Below, one piece after another: positions 1-10,199 of a stretch of DNA of 64,000 bases. The stretch is from an uncultured bacterium. GTDB taxonomy: Bacteria > Babelota > Babeliae > Babelales > Babelaceae. A program made the position numbers and the translations under genes. The first letter of the stretch is position 1, and the number at the start of each line of letters is the position of its first letter. The stretch spans positions 128,001-192,000 of the forward strand of contig CAWFXL010000001.1 in assembly GCA_963819815.1 (NCBI GenBank), read 5' to 3'. Under the pieces are notes generated by a model, which was not told the DNA's origin, did not search any database, and saw only the letters and a program-made list of their open reading frames with translations.

Positions 1-828
1 GGAGTGGGTAATAGGTTTAAGAAAGATATTTGGATCAAATGAAGGTCGTGAGAGAACTACTTCAAGGGCCCCGTCCTCGTCCATAAAGATGATGCTCCCT
101 TCAAGACCCTGAGGAAATACCTCTTCAGCAAACTGCTGAAACGATAGGTTTAAGGTCGTTTGAAGTGTTTTCCCGGCAAGGGCGTGCGAGATGGTATGGG
201 CATGTAAGGGGTTGCCTATGGCATTGGTAACCTTAAGTATTTGTCCTGCTTGGCCCTGGAGATCTTCTTCATACAACCTCTCAAGGCCCATTTTTCCTTG
301 GAGTGATTCTTTAACGCTTAGGTATCCTATAATATGGCAGGCAGTGGTGCTGTAGGGATAGCATCGCTCATAGCTCTGCTTTATAGTAAGATTCCTGGAG
401 GTAGGTACAGTTTCAAGAACTGCGCTGAGCTGCTCATAGGAAATATCAGGTACGAGCTTAAGTTTCGAAGAACGTCTCTCAGCTATCTCTATATCATGCA
501 TGACTTCTTGGTCGAGATTGCATAGAAGGAGAGCTTGTTGCGCACTCTGCCGTTGTCCTGCTGAAAGCATTACTTTACCGCTACCTTCCCACAGTAAGGA
601 ATAGACCGGTCTGTTTGTGACAAGCAGCGTACCCTGTTGGTCGGTAATGTTTCCTCGAGGTGAGGCAACCTTTTCCGTTCTGAGATAGTTACGCTTACTC
701 AGGCTCTTAAACTGATGCATCTGACTAATTTGTAGATGGAATAAATAAAGTACGATCGTTGAAAGCGCGAAGAATATCAGGAAAAGTATATGCCTCATGC
801 GTGCTGAAAGAATGTGGGGAATATACAT
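1..828 (-). CDS. mrdA: Penicillin-binding protein 2 (class B PBP), N-terminal part; runs off the window start
   Basis: Not in the ORF track. Manual translation from ATG at 828 (GGAG RBS upstream) gives MYIPHILSARMRHILFLIFFALSTIVLYLFHLQI...VASPRGNITDQQGTLLVTNRP...GLERLYEEDLQG...GKTLQTTLN...SRPSFDPN, which matches the PBP2 TM anchor and dimerisation domain. Confidence 0.85.
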   Translation of the reverse strand, partial: MYIPHILSARMRHILFLIFFALSTIVLYLFHLQISQMHQFKSLSKRNYLRTEKVASPRGNITDQQGTLLVTNRPVYSLLWEGSGKVMLSAGQRQSAQQALLLCNLDQEVMHDIEIAERRSSKLKLVPDISYEQLSAVLETVPTSRNLTIKQSYERCYPYSTTACHIIGYLSVKESLQGKMGLERLYEEDLQGQAGQILKVTNAIGNPLHAHTISHALAGKTLQTTLNLSFQQFAEEVFPQGLEGSIIFMDEDGALEVVLSRPSFDPNIFLKPITHS

Positions 829-837
829 AATACTCCC

Positions 838-3552
838 TTATTTAAGGTTGTATTCTTGACAGCGTCTGTTAACCGATGAGCGGTTAACCCCTAAGAGGGT
901 AGCAATTTTGCTTTGACTTTTGAACTTATGCCAGAGGATAGACATAACATGAGGATCCTTGAGAGCCTTTTTGCCTAGCCGCACTGCATGAGCAATATCT
1001 GGATCTGAAACGTTATAAGCGGGATCAAATTTAGTAACTTCAGAAATATTATGCTTACTCGATTTTTGGACAAGGAGTTGATGTACTCGATCTTTAAAGG
1101 CACGTAAGCTTAATGGCCGTTCATCATAGAGTTTTGAGGTATCTTTATCAGTTAATGAGAGCAAGTTTTTATAGGTATCTTCAGTAACAATTTGATCGGC
1201 AAATCCTTGAGCTAAAGCAGTGACCTCAGGTTCTGAAAGCTCATGCATTGGAGGCATAACCAATGAGGTTTGTTCAAGCTCATCATAGAGCTCCTGACAG
1301 AAGGCGCCTTCATGGACAAGCTGCAGAAGATTTTTGTTGGTTGAACAGATAATGCGAACGTTACTAAATACTTTATGGTCGCTCTTAAATTTATGAAAAT
1401 AACCAAGTGAAATGAACTCTGCTAAATAATTTTGAGTCTCTGTTCCTAAATATTCAACATTCTGGATAAAGAGGGTTCCGATATTATCTAGTTTTTCAAG
1501 CAGGGGCTGAATGCCATCTTTTTTTATGAGCGGATTATGGCCAAAGAGTTTTACAGCAACATCGTCCTGTTTCTCAGGAGAAGTAAGTTTTATGGTATGG
1601 AGTGATTGTCGGAGGCTTATGTTATGGAGTACTTCAACGGTTGGTATAAGATCTTCCTCAGGCAGATCAAGGAGCGTAGCTTTTTTACCTAATGCCGTTG
1701 AAAGCAGGTTAATTTTAAAGGAAAGGAGCTTTTCGCTATTTCCTGGTATAAGTCTGTTTATTAATTGGCCTGATTGTGTCGTTTCTAAATAGAGAACGTA
1801 GTCCCACATGGAAGGATCTTTGAGCTCGTCAAAGTGAGTTTTGATGATATCTGAAACTTCGGGATAATGAATCAAGACAATCGTTGCCCGCTCTTCAAGG
1901 CTTGGGATACCATTTATAATAATTTTTTGTCCTTTTGCGTCATGTGCAAAGGTAGTTTGCGAGGTCTTAAATTCTTGCACACGACGAGCAAGTGTTCGGA
2001 TTGCCTGAGTAAGAGGGTGGCCTTCATTCGCATTTAAATCTATCCCGACAAGCTCTTGAGCGGCCTCATTTGCTAGGGTGAACTTACGATACTTATAAAA
2101 GAGGATACCGACTTTACGCTCTTTATTTGAGCGTAAGAAGGAGCGTATACTTTCCTTATATTGATTAATTTCCTGGTGCTTGTAATACAGCTCTTCGCTA
2201 ATCACTTTATGTCTCTGATGAAGTGCTTCTAAATTACTATATTTGAGAATGTTAATAATATTGCTCACATAGGTGGTAAACACGAGCATTTCATCTCGAT
2301 CTTTATTAGTGTACAGTTTGCCCGGTCGTGCATCACGCTCTACAATGATATAGGCGGAGATACCAGATCTCTCAAAGATTGGGAGGAACACGTCGGCATT
2401 AATTTCGTTGAGGAATTGAAGAATTTCCTGATTTTGAGCATCATCTTCATAAAAGGCGGAAAAATGAATGTCGTCTCGTATAAATATTTTTAGTTTATGT
2501 AATGCCTGGGTAACCACTTCTTGCTTGTCGATATACTGCTCGACCTTTGCTGTTGTCTGCGCAATATCATAGTAGTTGTGATCATCCTGCTCTGAATCTG
2601 CTTTACGAATATAAAGTCTTACACGACCTAGAGGGATGCTAAAAGCAGTCTGAAAAAAACTCTGAGTGAGCTGGGCAAGCTCCTTGAGTGCACTTGCATA
2701 GCTTAGCTGCTCCAAAATATCTTTAAATTGTGTGATGAAGTTAAATTTCTGTTTTGATTCGACGGTCTTTCTGATATTAAGGAACCTCAGGCCTAACATT
2801 TTTTGAATAATGAGATAAATGGCGGCACTACTTAAGAGACTCGTAAGCGAGAGAAGATTAATTCTATGATACCAGGCTGTCGGAATGATCCAGGCGAGTG
2901 TTTGACCGGAGTTATTAAGAAGGTCAAAGCCTATAAAGGGAATAAGGAAACTGGTAAATACACGAATATGTTGCCGTAAAATAGTAGGAAGTTCTCGGTT
3001 ACTATCACGCAGTACCCTATAAAATAGGGGAATGAGAAGGAAAAAGAGCAAGTAAAAATGAATCGCTTGGATAAGGTCCATCTCAAAATTGACTGTTCTT
3101 GGATTGAGCGGAGGAATTCCATAATTAATGAACGCGTGATAGAGATACGTGCAACTGATGGCAATATTAACTAGTATATGAAGGGTAGTCGTGAGGGGAT
3201 GCCAGGTGATTCGTTTGTGGAGCAAAAATTCAAAGAAAAGTGCAATCGTTTGAATTTGCGTTATGTAAATTGACCAACATATACGACAATAAAGAGTGAA
3301 GACAGGAATATCCCCCACAATGTGATTAATACCTCTAATCCAATATTGCAAGATAAAGGTAAGATCATTTGCAAGTAATCCACCAAGGAAAAACAAAAGA
3401 CAGACCAAGAGCATTCGGCGGCTTTTTGCTGAGAAATAGTAGAATATACAGCCAAAGAAGATGATCGCTTTAAAAAGCCATGCACCAATCATAATGCCAA
3501 GCGTGACATACTGATTACTCAATAGTGTATAGATGGAACTCAGATATTGCAT
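838..3552 (-). CDS. Membrane-anchored one-component transcriptional regulator: ~7-8 TM sensor, GAF-like, PAS-like, degenerate sigma54-type AAA+ domain, Fis-type HTH (paralog 1)
   Basis: Hydrophobic N-terminal ~255 aa; PAS-like ANEAAQELVG; AAA+ remnants LFGH, GTLFIQNVE and NVRIICSTNKNL; C-terminal HTH QSKIATLLGVNRSSVNRR. Confidence 0.85.
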   Translation of the reverse strand: MQYLSSIYTLLSNQYVTLGIMIGAWLFKAIIFFGCIFYYFSAKSRRMLLVCLLFFLGGLLANDLTFILQYWIRGINHIVGDIPVFTLYCRICWSIYITQIQTIALFFEFLLHKRITWHPLTTTLHILVNIAISCTYLYHAFINYGIPPLNPRTVNFEMDLIQAIHFYLLFFLLIPLFYRVLRDSNRELPTILRQHIRVFTSFLIPFIGFDLLNNSGQTLAWIIPTAWYHRINLLSLTSLLSSAAIYLIIQKMLGLRFLNIRKTVESKQKFNFITQFKDILEQLSYASALKELAQLTQSFFQTAFSIPLGRVRLYIRKADSEQDDHNYYDIAQTTAKVEQYIDKQEVVTQALHKLKIFIRDDIHFSAFYEDDAQNQEILQFLNEINADVFLPIFERSGISAYIIVERDARPGKLYTNKDRDEMLVFTTYVSNIINILKYSNLEALHQRHKVISEELYYKHQEINQYKESIRSFLRSNKERKVGILFYKYRKFTLANEAAQELVGIDLNANEGHPLTQAIRTLARRVQEFKTSQTTFAHDAKGQKIIINGIPSLEERATIVLIHYPEVSDIIKTHFDELKDPSMWDYVLYLETTQSGQLINRLIPGNSEKLLSFKINLLSTALGKKATLLDLPEEDLIPTVEVLHNISLRQSLHTIKLTSPEKQDDVAVKLFGHNPLIKKDGIQPLLEKLDNIGTLFIQNVEYLGTETQNYLAEFISLGYFHKFKSDHKVFSNVRIICSTNKNLLQLVHEGAFCQELYDELEQTSLVMPPMHELSEPEVTALAQGFADQIVTEDTYKNLLSLTDKDTSKLYDERPLSLRAFKDRVHQLLVQKSSKHNISEVTKFDPAYNVSDPDIAHAVRLGKKALKDPHVMSILWHKFKSQSKIATLLGVNRSSVNRRCQEYNLK

Positions 3553-3568
3553 AGTTCTAAACTTTTTG

Positions 3569-3596
3569 TTGACTTTTGAAAAAACTGTTATAGAAT
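3569..3596 (+). promoter_or_regulatory. Sigma70-like promoter of peptide cassette 1
   Basis: TTGACT-16 nt-TAGAAT, conserved in all three cassettes. Confidence 0.7.
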
Positions 3597-3730
3597 CACT
3601 TTACAGAAAATCTAATCAAAAAGAGTTTAACTCCGTAGCAGCTAATGTCAAATTGTGCGCAATGGTTGCTACTTGAAGCTAAGGAATTGTAGCTGGTGGT
3701 TTTTTAATATATTTTCAAAAAGGAGTAACG

Positions 3731-3853
3731 ATGGCTAAACTAATTGTTAGCGCATTGTTCGCTATACTAATGACTGGTGCAGTAGCTGAAGTTTCTGCAC
3801 AGACTCGGTCCGAGGTTGCTAAAACTTATGCAATCTGCCCGTTTCCGTTCTAA
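3731..3853 (+). CDS. Small secreted peptide precursor 1 (40 aa) MAKLIVSALFAILMTGAVAEVSAQTRSEVAKTYAICPFPF
   Basis: Manual translation; AGGAG RBS 5 nt upstream; signal-peptide-like N-terminus; own promoter and terminator; two paralogs adjacent. Confidence 0.9.
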   Translation: MAKLIVSALFAILMTGAVAEVSAQTRSEVAKTYAICPFPF

Positions 3854-3858
3854 AGTAT

Positions 3859-3910
3859 TAACTATAAAGAAAGCACCCCTCGAATTCGAGGGGTGCTTTC
3901 TTTATAGTTA
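3859..3910. terminator. Perfect 52-bp palindrome / intrinsic terminator of cassette 1
   Basis: TAACTATAAAGAAAGCACCCCTCGAA|TTCGAGGGGTGCTTTCTTTATAGTTA. Confidence 0.85.
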
Positions 3911-4000
3911 GGTCTTGCAGCTACTATTGAGGGGAATGTACCCCAAATCTACGTTTTAAAAGTTTATTGTTCTCCCTAAGAATTTCTTATTTATTTTTGG

Positions 4001-4028
4001 TTGACTTTTGAAGAAACCGTTATACAAT
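4001..4028 (+). promoter_or_regulatory. Sigma70-like promoter of peptide cassette 2
   Basis: TTGACT-16 nt-TACAAT. Confidence 0.7.
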
Positions 4029-4161
4029 AATTTAGAAGAACTGCACGTAACATAAAAATAATATAACTTCGAGCAGCAGCGTATAGTAATTACTTGGCGG
4101 CTGTTTAGGTTCTGAGAATTGTAGTGGGTTGGTTTTTATTATTATTCAAATAGGAGTGATG

Positions 4162-4284
4162 ATGACAAAGCTTATTTTTAGTGCTTTGCTTGCTATGGTA
4201 ATGATTGGTTCAGTAGCAGAACTTTCTGCACAGACTCGGTCAGAAGCTGCCAAAACTTATGCAGTCTGCCCATTTCCGTTCTAA
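4162..4284 (+). CDS. Small secreted peptide precursor 2 (40 aa) MTKLIFSALLAMVMIGSVAELSAQTRSEAAKTYAVCPFPF
   Basis: Manual translation; AGGAG RBS; synonymous differences from peptide 1 (TCC/TCA, GAG/GAA, GCT/GCC, CCG/CCA) support a real coding frame. Confidence 0.9.
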   Translation: MTKLIFSALLAMVMIGSVAELSAQTRSEAAKTYAVCPFPF

Positions 4285-4299
4285 CTTATTCTAACTTTA

Positions 4300-4340
4300 A
4301 AATTAAGAACCCCCTCGAATCTCGAGGGGGTTCTTAATTT
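4300..4340. terminator. Intrinsic terminator of cassette 2
   Basis: AAATTAAGAACCCCCTCGA-atc-TCGAGGGGGTTCTTAATTT, 19-bp arms. Confidence 0.85.
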
Positions 4341-4430
4341 ATGGCTAAGGTATCCGAGGCTATCACTGAGGGGAAAGTGCCCCAATCTATATTTTTATAT
4401 TAGACCCAAGACGTTCCTGTTCACTTTTGG

Positions 4431-4458
4431 TTGACTTTCGAGAGAACTGTTATAGAAT
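4431..4458 (+). promoter_or_regulatory. Sigma70-like promoter of peptide cassette 3
   Basis: TTGACT-16 nt-TAGAAT. Confidence 0.7.
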
Positions 4459-4571
4459 CCTCTATAAGAACTGTACAAAAAAATAATATACCTGCGGGTA
4501 GCAGCTTATAGTAGGCGGCTATATGAGTTTTGAATTGTAGTGGTTGTTTTATATATCCAATAGGAGTGACG

Positions 4572-4697
4572 ATGACAAAGCTGATTCTTAGCGTATTTCT
4601 CGCTATATTAATGACAGGAGCAGTAGTTGAAGTATCTGCGCAAGCAAAGCGTTCAACGGTTTCTACAACTTGCCCCGAAGCGCGGTTTCCGTTCTAA
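4572..4697 (+). CDS. Small secreted peptide precursor 3 (41 aa) MTKLILSVFLAILMTGAVVEVSAQAKRSTVSTTCPEARFPF
   Basis: Manual translation; AGGAG RBS; same leader peptide and FPF terminus as peptides 1 and 2, with a divergent mature region. Confidence 0.9.
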   Translation: MTKLILSVFLAILMTGAVVEVSAQAKRSTVSTTCPEARFPF

Positions 4698-4707
4698 GCT
4701 AAAGTTA

Positions 4708-4746
4708 CAAGAAAGAGCCCCTCGAATTTCGAGGGGCTCTTTCTTG
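4708..4746. terminator. Bidirectional terminator between peptide 3 and convergent regulator paralog 2
   Basis: CAAGAAAGAGCCCCTCGAA-t-TTCGAGGGGCTCTTTCTTG. Confidence 0.85.
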
Positions 4747-4759
4747 GTGCTAACAGTTT

Positions 4760-7552
4760 TCAAGTTGGTGGCTGGTTGCTTCCCAAATTAAGCTCTCTGC
4801 ATCTACGGTTCACCGAAGATCTATTCACCCCAAGAAGATGAGCAATTTTGCTTTGATTTTTGAAGGTGTACCAAAGCTGAGCCATTATGTGTGGATCGCG
4901 GAGTGCTTTTTTACCCAGTCTTACAGCTTGAGCAATGACCGGATCGGTACTACTATTAACCGGATCGATTTTTTCAATGTCTGTGATGTTGTGTGATCGG
5001 GACTTTTCAAGAAGCAGCTCTTGAATTCGCTCTTTAAGTTCTTGCAAGCTGAGAGGACATTCCTTGATAAGCTGTGAGGTTTCCTTTGGTGTGATACTCA
5101 AGAGGTCTTTAAACGTATCAGTAGTGATTAGTTGATCAGCATATCCTTGTGCAAGCAAGGTTATATCTTCATGAGCAAGGTCAGTTAATGAAGGGAGACT
5201 AATGGTAGTTGCTTGTAGCTGCTCAAAGAGCTCTTGAGAAAAGACTCCTTCACTTACTAATACTGAAAGATCTTTTGACGTTGAACAGATGATGCGGGCA
5301 GAGCTCATTATTTTTTGGTCGCTTTTCACTTTATAAAAGTATCCCATGCGGATGTACTGGGCCAAGCCCTCTTGTGAGGTGAGACTTAACAGTTCTAGAT
5401 TTTGAATAAAGAGGGTGCCTGATTCATCGAGCTTGCTAAGCAGACTTTCAGATTGACTACCGCCCAGGAGGTCATTGATCCCAAAGAGCTGTGTGGCGAT
5501 TTCATCATGCTGCTCGCGTCGGGTAAGCTTGAGGGTGTACAAGTTTCTCCTTAGGCTTATCGAATGGAGTGATGTTACCGCTGCAAGCAGATCTTCCTCA
5601 GGCAACGAAAGAAGGACAGCTTTTCTGGTTAATGCAGCAGAAAGGAGTCCGATTTTAAAGGACAAAAGTGCCTCAGAGGTGCCAGGAATAAGTTCATTAA
5701 TAAGCCGCCCCGATTGGGTCGTTTCTAAATAGAGAACATAGTCCCAACAGGAGGGATCTTTCAGATACCCAGCATGGGGTTTTAACAGATCTGAAATTTC
5801 TGGATAGTAGAGTAGGAGTATACTTGAGGTCGTATCTGCATTTGGAATACCTGAGATCACCAGCTTAGTGCCACGTGTATCCTTACCATAGGCTATCTGT
5901 GCGGTTTTATATTGTTCAACCCTTTGTGCTACGGTCGTGCATATCTTGGTGAGTGGATGTCCCGAGAGCTTATTTAGATCAAAGCCCACGAGGTCATGAG
6001 CGGCCTCATTGGCATATGAAAACGTGCGATTTTTATAGGAGATGATACCGATTTTTCGCTCATGAGAGGTGCGCATGAATGAGCGTATGAGCTCCTTGTA
6101 CTGATTAATTTCTTGATGCTTATGATAAAGTTCTTCAGTAAGCTGTTTCTTTTGTACATGTAAAGCCTCCATACTAGTCTGTTGAAGTGCGGAAATGACA
6201 TTACTTATATACGAGGTAAATACGAGCATTTCATCCCGTTCTTTATTTGTGTAGAGCTTATCAGGTCGTGCATCGCGTTCTACCATAATATAGGCAACAA
6301 TCTTTGATTGTTCGTAAATCGGTACAAAGAGATCAGCATGGAGCATATCAAGGAAAGCAAGAATTTTTCTGTTGAGATCTGAAGCCTCATAGAAAAAAGA
6401 AAATTCTACGGCTTCCCGAATAAATATTTTATCGCGGGCTAAAGCAGCACGTAACGGTTCGTCATCCTTCAGAAATTGTTCAATTTTTAGCGCTGCTCCT
6501 ATGGCTTCTGGCGAAGTGACTGGGGCATCTTTAATGAAGAGTCGGGTAAAACTGAGTCGTATACCGAAGGCTGTGTGGAAAAAGGTTTGGGTGATATGAC
6601 ACAGTTCATTGACTGCTGAGGCATACCTCACCTGCTCCAAGATGTCTTTAAAATTAGTAAGAAAGTTAAAAGGTACCTTTGAGGTGACATCTGAATGTAA
6701 ATTAAGCAATCTCAAGCCGAGCATTTTTTTACTCAAAGTTATCAGGAGAAAGGCGCTGCAGAGGGCACCAATAGTGGCCCAGGAGTATTGACCTAAGGGG
6801 AAAGGAATATGTGCCGCACTAAAAATGGTGTACCATCCATCACCAAACAGAAGCAAGGAAAAAGGAAAGAGGTATAGGAGGCATGACTGTACCTGGACAG
6901 CCAAAATTTTAGGAAGTGTTCTGGTGCGCAGTTTTCGTATAAGGAATATAAAAAGGCCCAAATACAAGATAAATACATAACAATAGCTCGCAGAAATTAC
7001 GTTATGCTCAAGGAGATATTCGCTGCTCGATGTAACTACCGGAATTCCATAATAGGCTCCAGCTTCATATAAGAAAAAACTGGTGAACAGGAGATTGCAT
7101 AGAAGGTTTAAACTATGAAGGAAGGTGCACTTAATTCTTTGGGTTAAGAGGTATTCAAAAAAGAGGGCTAATGCCTGATGTGCACTGATAAAAAGACTCA
7201 GAGAAATTCGGCAATAGAGAGTAAAAAGGGGGATATCGCCCTGTATTTCAAGAATCCTTCGTAAAACGATCGATCCAATATAGGTAGCATCATCAAGGAG
7301 CGTTCCGAAAAGAAATATGAGTAATAGAAAAAGAGGTGCCCTGAGCTGTGGTTTATTATACCAAAACTTCACAATAAACCGGCCAATAACGAGCTTGGCA
7401 AGGCTCACAAGGATGAGCGCGCCACACGTTATATACGGATTAACAAGAAAAGAGGTGAGTGCTTCCAATAAGTGGTTCATCCCTAATATCTCTAGTTCCC
7501 TCTCATGAGGGTGTATATACATGAGTACTGCTTGTACTATTAATTTAAACAA
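4760..7552 (-). CDS. Membrane-anchored one-component regulator, paralog 2 (likely start ATG 7480, MNHLLE)
   Basis: Collinear with 838..3552 (VERDARP.KLYTNK.RDEMLVFT, WDYVLYLETTQSG, LLGVNRSSVNRRC); TM region much more divergent. Confidence 0.85.
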   Translation of the reverse strand: MFKLIVQAVLMYIHPHERELEILGMNHLLEALTSFLVNPYITCGALILVSLAKLVIGRFIVKFWYNKPQLRAPLFLLLIFLFGTLLDDATYIGSIVLRRILEIQGDIPLFTLYCRISLSLFISAHQALALFFEYLLTQRIKCTFLHSLNLLCNLLFTSFFLYEAGAYYGIPVVTSSSEYLLEHNVISASYCYVFILYLGLFIFLIRKLRTRTLPKILAVQVQSCLLYLFPFSLLLFGDGWYTIFSAAHIPFPLGQYSWATIGALCSAFLLITLSKKMLGLRLLNLHSDVTSKVPFNFLTNFKDILEQVRYASAVNELCHITQTFFHTAFGIRLSFTRLFIKDAPVTSPEAIGAALKIEQFLKDDEPLRAALARDKIFIREAVEFSFFYEASDLNRKILAFLDMLHADLFVPIYEQSKIVAYIMVERDARPDKLYTNKERDEMLVFTSYISNVISALQQTSMEALHVQKKQLTEELYHKHQEINQYKELIRSFMRTSHERKIGIISYKNRTFSYANEAAHDLVGFDLNKLSGHPLTKICTTVAQRVEQYKTAQIAYGKDTRGTKLVISGIPNADTTSSILLLYYPEISDLLKPHAGYLKDPSCWDYVLYLETTQSGRLINELIPGTSEALLSFKIGLLSAALTRKAVLLSLPEEDLLAAVTSLHSISLRRNLYTLKLTRREQHDEIATQLFGINDLLGGSQSESLLSKLDESGTLFIQNLELLSLTSQEGLAQYIRMGYFYKVKSDQKIMSSARIICSTSKDLSVLVSEGVFSQELFEQLQATTISLPSLTDLAHEDITLLAQGYADQLITTDTFKDLLSITPKETSQLIKECPLSLQELKERIQELLLEKSRSHNITDIEKIDPVNSSTDPVIAQAVRLGKKALRDPHIMAQLWYTFKNQSKIAHLLGVNRSSVNRRCRELNLGSNQPPT

Positions 7553-9101: not shown

Positions 9102-10199
9102 ATGCAGTGGAACTGGCAGCTGGCTACATGGCCGAATTTTACCTATAACCCTGATAGCATAACTGAGCTTGAAAGAACATTTCTTTTAAGAGCAGGCAGC
9201 AGCTATGCTTTGTTATGCACTACAGGTGAGAAGGATAGAACTCAATTTATAATTGAGATGCTCACTCAAGAAGGATTAGAAAGTTCAAAAATTGAGGGAG
9301 AGCTTCTCGACCGGGAAAGTTTAGTATCATCAATTAAAAAGCACTTTGGGTTGCATGATGATAGTAAGAATCAATCTAATAAAGAGGCGGGGATGGCTGA
9401 GCTTCTCTGTAACGTATATGAGACCTACGATGCACCGCTTAGCCACGAAATGCTTTGGCAATGGCATGGGATGCTCTTTAAAAAAAATTGGTCCAGTCTT
9501 GAAGAATGCGGACAGTATCGGACACATAAAGAGCCGATGCAGATTGTTTCTGGTCATGGTGATGGACGCATCTACTTCGAAGCGCCCCCTTCAAAGAATG
9601 TATACAAAGAAATGACGAGATTTATCGAATGGTATAATGCTTCAGGCACTTCAGAGACTCTTTTAGGACGAGCTGCTCTTGCACATGTGTACTTTGAAAG
9701 TATTCATCCCTTTGAAGATGGAAATGGAAGGATAGGCAGAGTTCTTGTGGAAAAAGTTCTCTCCCAAGGAGCTCAACAACCTCTTTTGATTGCAGTTTCA
9801 AAGTGCATTGAAAAACGCAAAAAGGCCTATTATACAGAACTTGAAAGATGTAATAGGACGGTTGAGGTACAGCACGGGGTTGAGTTTTTTGCCCACATAA
9901 TCCTGCAAGCTCAGCAAGATTCGATGAGGCTTCTCAACTTTTTGATGCAGAAGTCTAAAATGCTTACGGCGCTATCAGGAAAAATCAATCAACGACAAGA
10001 AAAGGTTTTGTTGAGGATGTTTGCAGAAGGGCCCGATGGCTTTCAGGGAGGTTTAAGTGCTGAAAAATATATCTCTATTACAAAAACACCTCGTGCTACG
10101 GCTACTCGCGATTTAGTTGACCTGGTTAGTAGGGGAGCCTTGCTAAAAACTGGTGAATTGCGGTATACCCGCTACTGGCTAAATCTGGCCTATGTATGA
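9102..10199 (+). CDS. Fic family protein (N-terminal DUF4172-like region, C-terminal wHTH)
   Basis: HPFEDGNGRIGR Fic motif; SSKIEGE inhibitory motif; C-terminal TATRDLVDLV helix. Confidence 0.92.
   Translation: MQWNWQLATWPNFTYNPDSITELERTFLLRAGSSYALLCTTGEKDRTQFIIEMLTQEGLESSKIEGELLDRESLVSSIKKHFGLHDDSKNQSNKEAGMAELLCNVYETYDAPLSHEMLWQWHGMLFKKNWSSLEECGQYRTHKEPMQIVSGHGDGRIYFEAPPSKNVYKEMTRFIEWYNASGTSETLLGRAALAHVYFESIHPFEDGNGRIGRVLVEKVLSQGAQQPLLIAVSKCIEKRKKAYYTELERCNRTVEVQHGVEFFAHIILQAQQDSMRLLNFLMQKSKMLTALSGKINQRQEKVLLRMFAEGPDGFQGGLSAEKYISITKTPRATATRDLVDLVSRGALLKTGELRYTRYWLNLAYV

Follow-up and report, generated by a model that had tools for sequence, protein, structure and literature searches.

The 64,000-nt stretch of DNA analysed here (the window; positions 128,001 to 192,000 of contig CAWFXL010000001.1, assembly GCA_963819815.1) comes from an uncultured bacterium of the family Babelaceae and contains, between the genes of two large membrane-bound regulators, a tandem array of three small peptide genes. 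The array occupies positions 3540-4775 of the plus strand and consists of three units of about 430 bp each, with a mean column identity of 78%, which are the only copies of this cassette in the genome (G000). All three units have the same layout, namely a sigma-70-type promoter, a 5' untranslated region (5'UTR), the Shine-Dalgarno (SD) site AGGAGT located 4 nt 5' of the ATG, an open reading frame (ORF) of 40, 40 or 41 amino acids (aa), and a hairpin (Table 1). Small genes of a related kind are paired with homologous regulators across the phylum, and comparison of these loci indicates that the small peptides and their seven-helix regulators probably form a peptide signalling pair.

An earlier reading of this DNA from its letters alone (the sequence-only reading) had described three ORFs with a Sec-like leader, a Gln at position +1 and a C-terminal FPF, and all three are present where it had placed them. 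By inspection, the leaders are 23 residues long, begin with M-A/T-K, continue with 15-16 hydrophobic residues and end with (V/L)SA in front of the Gln, an arrangement that fits the n-h-c scheme and the -3/-1 rule (V/L-S-A) and marks them, by eye, as putative signal peptides. The predicted mature parts are polar and not amphipathic, all of them end in FPF, and each has one Cys, which is the fifth residue from the C-terminal end in peptides 1 and 2, where hydrophobic residues come after it, and the eighth from the end in peptide 3. In the ORF list the frame of peptide 2 begins at a TTG further upstream (4129). The ATG at 4162 is preferred because its AGGAGT spacing of 4 nt equals that of units 1 and 3. 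NCBIfam recognizes no family in any of the three peptides, and the protein atlas finds none for peptide 1 (best value 0.80). Peptides 1 and 3 are present in public collections as unnamed predicted proteins, while peptide 2 is not.

The -35 element of the unit 1 promoter sits only 17 nt from the ATG of regulator 1, the gene divergent from this unit. Promoter-like sites are not enriched as such in the region (5 seen versus 3.1 expected), and the 5'UTRs, counted from predicted transcription starts, are roughly 110-130 nt long. The hairpins that close the units are perfect, 18-25 bp in length and G+C-rich, with z-scores of -7.9 to -12.7, and no shuffled sequence folds as well. A search of positions 3400-4900 against Rfam at E <= 1 gave nothing near a gathering score, the weak matches being the hairpins themselves, and an inspection by eye, with no motif discovery run, found no inverted repeat common to the three promoters.

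Two features of the 5'UTRs can be added. The motif TTGTAG(C/T)(G/T)G occurs in all three of them (in units 2 and 3 at 4119-4127 and 4535-4543), about 30-45 nt 5' of the ribosome site; it has 7 matches in the window versus 2.2 expected, and could be an operator or an RNA element. At the equivalent place in the 5'UTRs of sister species (L042, L044, L048 and L073), strings resembling TTGTAGTGG can be seen by eye. The three 5'UTRs (3603-3735, 4035-4166 and 4465-4576) also share a consensus fold with a conserved hairpin, in which an ACTCC-like stretch may pair with AGGAGT, a fold that is weak at -8.9 kcal/mol and is based on three sequences with two compensatory pairs.

Table 1. Features of the peptide array and the flanking regulator genes (window positions).
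Feature	Position	Strand	Description
Peptide 1 gene	3731..3853	+	40 aa; leader MAKLIVSALFAILMTGAVAEVSA, predicted mature part QTRSEVAKTYAICPFPF
Peptide 2 gene	4162..4284	+	40 aa; SD 4152-4157; leader MTKLIFSALLAMVMIGSVAELSA, predicted mature part QTRSEAAKTYAVCPFPF
Peptide 3 gene	4572..4697	+	41 aa; SD 4562-4567; leader MTKLILSVFLAILMTGAVVEVSA, predicted mature part QAKRSTVSTTCPEARFPF
Promoter, unit 1	3569..3596	+	TTGACT-16-TAGAAT; 10/12 matches; conserved in the 3 units and in G001
Promoter, unit 2	4001..4028	+	TTGACT-16-TACAAT; 10/12 matches
Promoter, unit 3	4431..4458	+	TTGACT-16-TAGAAT; 10/12 matches
5'UTR, unit 1 (start approximate)	3603..3730	+	hairpin, TTGTAGCTG motif 3687-3695, SD AGGAGT 3721-3726; near-identical in G001
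Terminator-like hairpin, unit 1	3858..3911	.	25 bp, -41.5 kcal/mol
Terminator-like hairpin, unit 2	4300..4340	.	-30.7 kcal/mol
Terminator-like hairpin, unit 3	4708..4746	.	-37.6 kcal/mol; placed to end the convergent regulator 2 gene too
Regulator 1	838..3552	-	904 aa; seven transmembrane helices (7TM; aa 1-255), GAF-like domain, long helix, PAS-like domain, dead AAA+ domain, Fis-type helix-turn-helix (HTH)
Regulator 2	4760..7552	-	paralogue of the same architecture; listed start TTG 7552, likely ATG 7480, giving 906 aa

Conservation of the peptide genes within the genus

Among the 60 relatives searched for the cassette, a single genome of the same genus (G001, 67% complete) contains it, and four other matches with E values of 0.24-0.55 are noise. 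The G001 locus shows 91.5% nucleotide identity over about 1500 nt, and all three frames are kept there at equal lengths. The sequence-only reading had proposed purifying selection on the basis of peptides 1 and 2, and Nei-Gojobori counts bear this out, since there is an excess of synonymous changes per site both over the whole precursors (11 synonymous changes in 29.7 sites versus 10 non-synonymous in 90.3) and over the mature part (4 in 12.5 versus 2 in 38.5). Pooling the three orthologue pairs of the window and G001 gives 11 synonymous changes in 92.1 sites and 15 non-synonymous changes in 270.9. Small as these numbers are, they indicate that the peptide genes are under purifying selection. 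Because the 5'UTR and promoter are conserved as strongly as the coding part, conservation between the two genomes is no proof of coding by itself; the coding nature of the ORFs is proven, on comparative grounds, by the family evidence of phylum-wide pairing described below.

The sequence-only reading had further described a single Cys. There is indeed one in each window peptide, but it is not invariant, as the peptide-1 orthologue of G001 reads ..YAIAPFPF, with Ala instead of Cys, and in the peptide 3 pair CPEA is changed to CTEA. In peptides 1 and 2, the position of the Cys five residues from the C-terminus, with hydrophobic residues after it, had raised the thought of an Agr-type autoinducing peptide, which an AgrB-like peptidase would close into a five-residue Cys thiolactone (CPFPF). 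Against this stand the loss of the Cys in the orthologue and its shift to eight residues from the end in peptide 3, and neither the genus alignment nor the wider family shows a conserved Cys, most relatives having none at that place. Moreover, the ORFs end at FPF and have no C-terminal recognition tail that could be removed. The lack of an AgrB gene, already noted for the window, also holds when the search is extended to the genome (88% complete), where PF04647 reaches 12 bits at best (E 0.087) compared with a cut-off of 23. An Agr-type thiolactone is thus largely refuted and scarcely credible here. From the alternatives listed in the sequence-only reading, the linear form fits best, possibly with an N-terminal pyroglutamate; a search for the glutaminyl cyclase suggested there found no Glu_cyclase_2 in this 88% complete genome, and any pyroglutamate would therefore be formed spontaneously.

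A metagenome scan with regulator 1 gave no further cassette of this type among its four loci, which are the G001 contig, two fragments without the upstream side and one distant locus, and a profile search with the genus peptide alignment (A4) returned 15 proteins, almost all of them known already and none of the FPF type. Two soil-metagenome DNA runs share small parts of this DNA.

Pairing of small peptides and regulators across the phylum

Small ORFs divergent from the regulator, hydrophobic at the N-terminus and rich in proline at the other end, were noticed among the first 30 loci inspected around homologues of the regulators, and the pairing was counted in a sample of 74 public Babeliales loci fetched by regulator alignment. 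A motif-dependent count admitted ATG ORFs of 25-75 aa with a hydrophobic 10-mer and PP, PFP or FPF in the tail, at a distance of up to 700 bp, in the 65 loci with full flanks. It found such an ORF upstream and divergent in 50/65 loci, downstream on the opposite strand in 3/65, and on the same strand as the regulator in 0/65 both upstream and downstream, with 0.4% in shuffled upstream DNA. A motif-free count, which admitted any ATG ORF 18-80 aa long and no more than 500 bp away, provided that it had a hydrophobic 10-mer and was preceded by an SD-like site, and which required a full 500-bp upstream flank, gave 54/69 for the upstream-divergent orientation versus 1/69 for the same strand upstream and 2/70 and 3/70 for the downstream orientations. 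PP occurs in the last 12 residues of 52 of the 54 paired ORFs, compared with 3 of 220 comparable ORFs from all frames of the window's own genome, and the two exceptions are G001, with the FPF type of the window, and L087. Under looser limits a candidate small ORF is present in 58 of 73 loci, and five more were recognized among 12 re-examined loci of the remaining 15. The pairing of peptide and regulator genes across the phylum is therefore firmly established, and its conservation and fixed orientation imply that peptide and regulator work together.

Outside the genus, a typical family peptide has 20-38 aa (e.g. ..IVALEWPPGS, ..VVCAEYPPLG, ..ILADMPPYA or MKFMTVLLGLVTFLGIFPPV) and is composed of a basic N-terminus, one hydrophobic stretch, in many cases of 12-15 residues, and another 4-8 residues, so that the Pro-Pro tail abuts the hydrophobic stretch. 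The C-terminal x-P-P-x motif is the sole conserved part, and many different residues are found next to PP (W, F, Y, M, G, Q, L). The forms found in the genus have 40-51 aa, often occur in 2-3 tandem copies, and possess classical leaders with an h-region of 15-16 residues, sites of the types (V/L)SA before Q, VNA before E and VTA before Q, and polar tails of 17-28 aa with ends such as GGGPPWIIGR, HGVPPYEE or GLPPY. In the genus alignment the PFPF of the window lines up with the GPPY or GPPW of sister species and the second Pro is invariant; on this alignment, FPF is a local variant of the family-wide Pro-Pro motif (x-Pro-Pro-x). The export-type signal peptides proposed in the sequence-only reading thus belong to real, conserved small-peptide genes, but the flanking regulators and the link to the Pro-Pro family had been missed.

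In some relatives a single precursor contains two or three copies of the Pro-Pro unit (L023:1203-1391, L110:1100-1216, L057:1984-2169 and L085:2158-2313, all on the minus strand), for example as 3 x D(D/E)FPPMG (DDFPPMG..DDFPPMG..DEFPPMG), as 2 x SVFPPIS or as SVFPPISSVFPPIS. They recall the multi-copy precursors of pheromones, and the repetition points to the short Pro-Pro unit as the presumable active part.

With only 4-8 residues past the hydrophobic stretch in most family members, and with no plausible -3/-1 site in several of them (e.g. ..AILVVVPPSG and ..LGIFPPV), the peptides might instead be micro-proteins that are retained in the membrane, uncleaved and non-diffusible, and dock laterally on the 7TM regulator, as MgrB does on PhoQ. 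This would be a variant of the signalling explanation favoured here, not its opposite. It agrees less well with the window and genus peptides, the canonical leaders, cleavage sites and polar tails of which are typical of cleaved signal peptides, with the many h-regions of 12-15 residues, which are short for a stable membrane helix, and with the repeated-motif precursors, which suggest processing. Retention as the general mode is decidedly unlikely on these grounds.

The intergenic regions (n = 56) contain an SD-like site in 51/56 cases (5% of shuffles) and a promoter of the form TTGNNN-16..18-TATA[CA]T in 35/56 (1.8% of shuffles). The -35 elements of the family promoters lie mostly 1-23 nt from the regulator ATG, and the start codons of the two genes are mostly 60-105 nt apart, which means that the transcription units must overlap or interfere. 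Such an arrangement is also compatible with a functionless peptide, the ORF of which would serve as a leader in cis and tune the regulator either through overlapping divergent transcription or through Pro-Pro stalling dependent on elongation factor P or on secretion. SecM and MifM are secretion-dependent stalling leaders, PP near the stop codon is the one conserved feature of the family, and the possible anti-SD/SD pairing in the window, weak and based on three sequences, would suit the same idea. However, the window peptides have no PP (PFPF, RFPF) and are nevertheless conserved and triplicated, and units 2 and 3 are 430-860 nt away from the regulator 1 start, with strong hairpins of their own and no downstream cistron. 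In addition, the known monitoring substrates are located upstream on the same strand, whereas the peptide genes are divergent, and a pure stalling leader would not need a conserved basic-hydrophobic N-terminus. A leader function in cis is very unlikely when all this is considered.

Divergent regulator-target pairs are common, and synteny alone is no proof of sensing; the peptides could be a regulated product, or be merely co-located, without any feedback. They might in that case act as an exported effector or envelope factor, such as a mimic of EVH1, WW or SH3 ligands aimed at the protist host. The bacteria are obligate parasites of protists, and the tails DFPPID, DDFPPMG and GFPPPTE resemble the FPPPP class of EVH1 ligands. 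On the other hand, it is not evident how a peptide of 6-18 aa, once delivered through Sec to the periplasm of a diderm, would reach the host cytosol, the residues flanking PP are highly variable, and the PFPF of the window fits no such ligand class. Furthermore, paralogous regulators of one genome each keep a distinct peptide (..YR(L/V/A)P(I/P)PP at L058 versus ..ERPPYFPHI at L072), which fits cognate pairs better. A product or effector without feedback is unlikely, though it deserves to be kept in view.

The small size, hydrophobicity and multiple copies of the peptides, together with the strong promoters and hairpins, would also be expected of membrane-active peptides resembling type I toxins or bacteriocins, and the sequence-only reading itself had named type I toxins as a case that would refute it. 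Yet a phylum-wide link to a regulator and a conserved polar Pro-Pro end are not known features of type I toxins, the mature parts in the window lack amphipathic character, no Rfam antitoxin or small RNA family was found at gathering score, and no conserved immunity gene or dedicated export gene adjoins the peptide genes, the conserved neighbours being a penicillin-binding protein (PBP) or a Xer-type recombinase; a toxin-like function is highly improbable. The idea that FPF imitates the aromatic-x-Phe end of outer membrane proteins and activates DegS-type proteases was rejected generally, because the relatives do not end in Phe. Since the peptide genes are linked throughout the phylum to a membrane regulator of receptor type, a signalling role appears to be the best reading of the peptides.

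Architecture and evolution of the regulators

Homologues of the flanking regulators are publicly named 'sigma 54-interacting transcriptional regulator' of Candidatus Dependentiae/Babeliales. Sequence searches detect in the two proteins only Sigma54_activat, in the second half of the AAA+ domain (in regulator 1 over Pfam profile positions 93-166 of 168), and the C-terminal HTH, and they give no match to a TPR family. The best NCBIfam match is TyrR, which has an E value of 1.9e-19 and falls far short of the cut-off of this family. When the AAA+ profile of 23 homologues is compared with NtrC1 (4ly6), GAFTGA is replaced by 'np..llek' and the Walker B sequence 'FLDEI' by 'FiqnI', while the Walker A region does not align to NtrC1 and has, by eye, the consensus ..PEEDL... 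Judged by these motifs, the AAA+ domain is ATPase-dead and sigma-54-activator-like. In addition, searches for Sigma54_DBD (PF04552) were negative for the window's own genome and for all 41 family genomes examined, among them 25 with a completeness of 90% or more, which agrees with the sigma-70 type of the promoters. As the lineage is without sigma-54, the regulators must work with sigma-70, and the database label is functionally wrong.

The N-terminal part has been modelled with AlphaFold2 from an alignment of 60 sequences (regulator 1 aa 1-290; predicted local distance difference test (pLDDT) 89.2, predicted template-modelling score (pTM) 0.84), and forms seven long membrane helices in the model. 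Because the cytoplasmic domains come after the seventh helix, the N-terminus should face outward (N-out, C-in). A less confident model of aa 256-640 (pLDDT 72.7) contains the GAF-like domain, the long helix and the PAS-like domain, and Foldseek matches it to GAF/PAS modules of phytochromes and to DhaR(N). For the 7TM model, the best 50 rows of two structure searches consist of G-protein-coupled receptors (GPCRs) only, eukaryotic or viral, many of which are peptide receptors. The scores (Foldseek best E 2.2e-3, template-modelling score 0.44-0.59; VIA-align Z 15.2, root mean square deviation 5.0 over 236 residues) denote a likeness of fold only, near the level common for helical bundles, for which the best Z is typically about 14. 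Pfam finds no family in the 7TM domain, either on its own or in any of 60 homologues. The HisKA_7TM family (PF16927) was tried for this N-terminus and rejected, as 0/60 aligned 7TM domains match it at E <= 1; the lead came from a language-model neighbour cluster in which 21% of the members carry the domain, and Pfam did not confirm it. Neither the peptides nor the sensor domain belong to a family described in NCBIfam, the protein atlas or Pfam.

The 7TM domain is the variable part of the regulators. Regulators 1 and 2 are 31.6% identical in it versus 52-67% elsewhere, and over 253 pairs of homologues the mean pairwise identity is 27.8% versus 56-67% in the other domains, which puts the evolutionary rate of the sensor at roughly double that of the remaining parts. 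Between G000 and G001, 10 of the 16 differences in regulator 1 fall into the first 255 of its 904 aa. Regulator homologues are present in 36/41 genomes of the family, often as tandem pairs, and the 7TM profile is found in 183/261 genomes of the phylum and in 141/189 high-quality ones, while it is missing from whole families, e.g. f11 (0/35) and f6 (0/12).

A proposed model of peptide sensing at the membrane

We consider it a serious possibility, somewhat short of probable, that the small peptides are exported and act on the flanking 7TM-GAF-PAS-deadAAA-HTH one-component regulators as their cognate extracytoplasmic signal or modulator. Each unit would be transcribed separately from its near-consensus sigma-70 promoter and translated by means of a strong ribosome site, and the 23-aa leader would carry the precursor through Sec. 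Cleavage by signal peptidase I after (V/L)SA would then yield linear peptides of 17-18 aa ending with (P/R)FPF and possibly bearing a spontaneous pyroglutamate. The genome has two Peptidase_S26 (signal peptidase I) matches and one RseP-type Peptidase_M50; the better signal peptidase I match (G000:C2:3420-4133) is on a small second contig of 39.5 kb, putatively of the same organism. RseP-type release is a known route for SHP and for enterococcal pheromones, and the short forms of other genera might be released by another protease or stay in the membrane.

The C-terminal end of the peptide is proposed to contact regulator 1, regulator 2 or both on the outer face of their fast-evolving seven-helix domain, because the N-terminus is of export type, the conserved motif is C-terminal, some precursors repeat this motif, and the sensor evolves fast. 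From there, the GAF-like and PAS-like domains and then the ATPase-dead AAA+ domain could relay the signal as far as the Fis-type HTH, and this HTH would act at sigma-70 promoters. A complex prediction for aa 1-290 of regulator 1 with the peptide 1 precursor, both entered as alignments, gave a score of 0.02 and a mark of 0.32, which speaks neither for nor against binding. Slightly more tentative is the general form of this idea, in which a phylum-wide module combines a genetically paired Pro-Pro micropeptide with a GPCR-like seven-helix receptor that senses it directly and is joined to a dead sigma-54-activator transcription factor, with three peptides and two receptors, and possibly two channels, at the present locus. 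With two receptors as divergent as these, peptide 3 may or may not be the distinct pherotype that the sequence-only reading saw in it.

A number of points weigh against this account. That the peptides are exported and bind the 7TM domain, where they are cleaved, and which targets are regulated in which direction are points that we infer. Being near consensus, the peptide promoters need no activator and hence do not point to classic autoinduction. They may be repressed by the regulator or not be under its control at all, or the peptide may be produced constitutively, its level then serving to gauge confinement or density. Release by signal peptidase I is doubtful for the forms of 20-38 aa, for which membrane retention or intramembrane cleavage fits better. 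The window peptides have no canonical PP and form, together with G001, one of the two exceptions among the 54 paired ORFs, about 10 of the 73 regulator loci are without a peptide gene, some of them with truncated flanks, and no peptide gene lies upstream of regulator 2. As to the sensor, its resemblance to GPCRs hardly exceeds what helical bundles commonly give, and the contrast in identity between domains is weak evidence, membrane domains often evolving faster than soluble ones. Regulator 2 shows no excess of changes in this part between G000 and G001 (14 of 44 differences), and sensing could really be the task of the GAF-like and PAS-like domains in the cytoplasm.

Relation to known peptide signalling systems

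In its layout, the pairing resembles the Rgg/SHP and ComR/ComS systems of streptococci, where a tiny and often unannotated ORF of about 20-35 aa with a basic N-terminus, a hydrophobic stretch and an active C-terminal end is divergent from its cognate regulator, and where several paralogous pairs are possible per genome. In those systems, however, a re-imported peptide meets a soluble cytoplasmic TPR (RRNPP) receptor, whereas the regulators described here are 7TM proteins without TPR, belong to a diderm of an unrelated phylum, and are accompanied by a Pro-Pro motif. For these systems see PMC13361665 and PMC7564271.

The 40-aa form of the window comes closest to Phr/Rap and PapR/PlcR of Bacillus, with Sec-leader precursors of about 40-48 aa in which the last few C-terminal residues are active. 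The comparison with PapR drawn in the sequence-only reading accordingly applies to the general layout of leader and active C-terminal end, but not to the receptor, as the regulator is not of the RRNPP/TPR kind. Phr and PapR genes are located downstream of the regulator, their receptors are cytoplasmic, and import depends on Opp; there is no sequence similarity to the window peptides, and the likeness is one of layout, not of homology.

Staphylococcal Agr (AgrD/AgrB/AgrC/AgrA) offers the parallel of a peptide sensed at the membrane by a polytopic sensor with a hypervariable membrane part. It differs in that the present system has no AgrB match at cut-off, no conserved Cys and no tail, and employs a one-component transcription factor in place of a histidine kinase. 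MgrB is likewise a micro-protein of <50 aa that has a single hydrophobic segment, ends in a short tail in the periplasm and acts on a membrane sensor, as is proposed for the family peptides; in contrast to them, its gene is unlinked to phoQ, its target is a two-component kinase, and no conserved paired module is known for it.

On the side of the regulator, the TyrR type shares a PAS-like domain, a sigma-54-activator-type AAA+ domain without GAFTGA, a C-terminal HTH and independence from sigma-54. TyrR itself is a soluble, ATP-binding protein with an ACT domain, whereas here the N-terminus is a 7TM domain and Walker B is lost as well. BcrR, ToxR and CadC also unite sensing and DNA binding in one membrane-anchored protein, and BcrR senses a peptide antibiotic, but their folds and domain order are different, with an N-terminal HTH, 1-4 transmembrane helices and no known paired peptide. 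By the features that define them, the Agr, RRNPP and sigma-54-activator families all exclude the regulator-peptide system.

To our knowledge, peptide signalling by gene-linked micro-ORFs has been described almost only from Gram-positive bacteria, with a histidine kinase or a cytoplasmic RRNPP protein as the receptor. Literature searches found no paper describing the peptide-regulator pairing and none joining Dependentiae with sigma-54. Queries on regulators, quorum sensing and small ORFs in Dependentiae/TM6/Babeliales gave nothing on this module, and those on membrane-bound one-component, 7TM and peptide pheromone systems gave eukaryotic (fungal, insect) GPCR papers only. The words 'regulator', 'sigma', 'two-component' and 'peptide' do not occur in the main text of PMC4776705. 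In the case of Chromulinavorax, PMC6561590 describes quorum-sensing mechanisms as absent and names merR, yebC and fmdB as regulators.

The array in the window is a local, expanded and atypical instance, with FPF for PP, of a phylum-wide peptide-regulator module that has not been described before. If the idea of direct sensing is true, it would add a third receptor architecture to bacterial peptide signalling, beside histidine kinases and RRNPP proteins, as the candidate receptor joins a seven-helix membrane domain to a DNA-binding regulator in a single protein. The bacteria of this phylum are protist parasites that have received little study, their genomes are reduced, and few of their regulators are known. 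Given its wide distribution, the 7TM regulator may be one of their main environmental or developmental switches. The pairing also supplies a testable ligand candidate for an orphan receptor family. A signalling module would thereby be recognized in Dependentiae, which PMC6561590 presents as being without quorum sensing.

Neighbouring genes and other small open reading frames

In this genus the gene directly downstream of the regulator encodes a penicillin-binding transpeptidase (PBP_dimer; window 1-828, minus strand), and in four loci of other genera a Xer-type tyrosine recombinase takes its place (loci compared: L021, L023, L032, L033, L014 and L016). Both are cell-division proteins and may hint at the regulon. 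On the other side, 1.5 kb beyond regulator 2, lies the gene of a Fic/DUF4172 protein, a possible adenylyltransferase (window 9102-10199, plus strand).

Other small ORFs of the genome combine signal-peptide-like leaders with Cys-rich tails (G000:C1:1147457-1147663, 1147783-1147995, 68242-68421, 885466-885633 and 280161-280316). They include a tandem pair beginning with MKLQKLFFLVSCVFGTINVQA and are unrelated to the FPF peptides.

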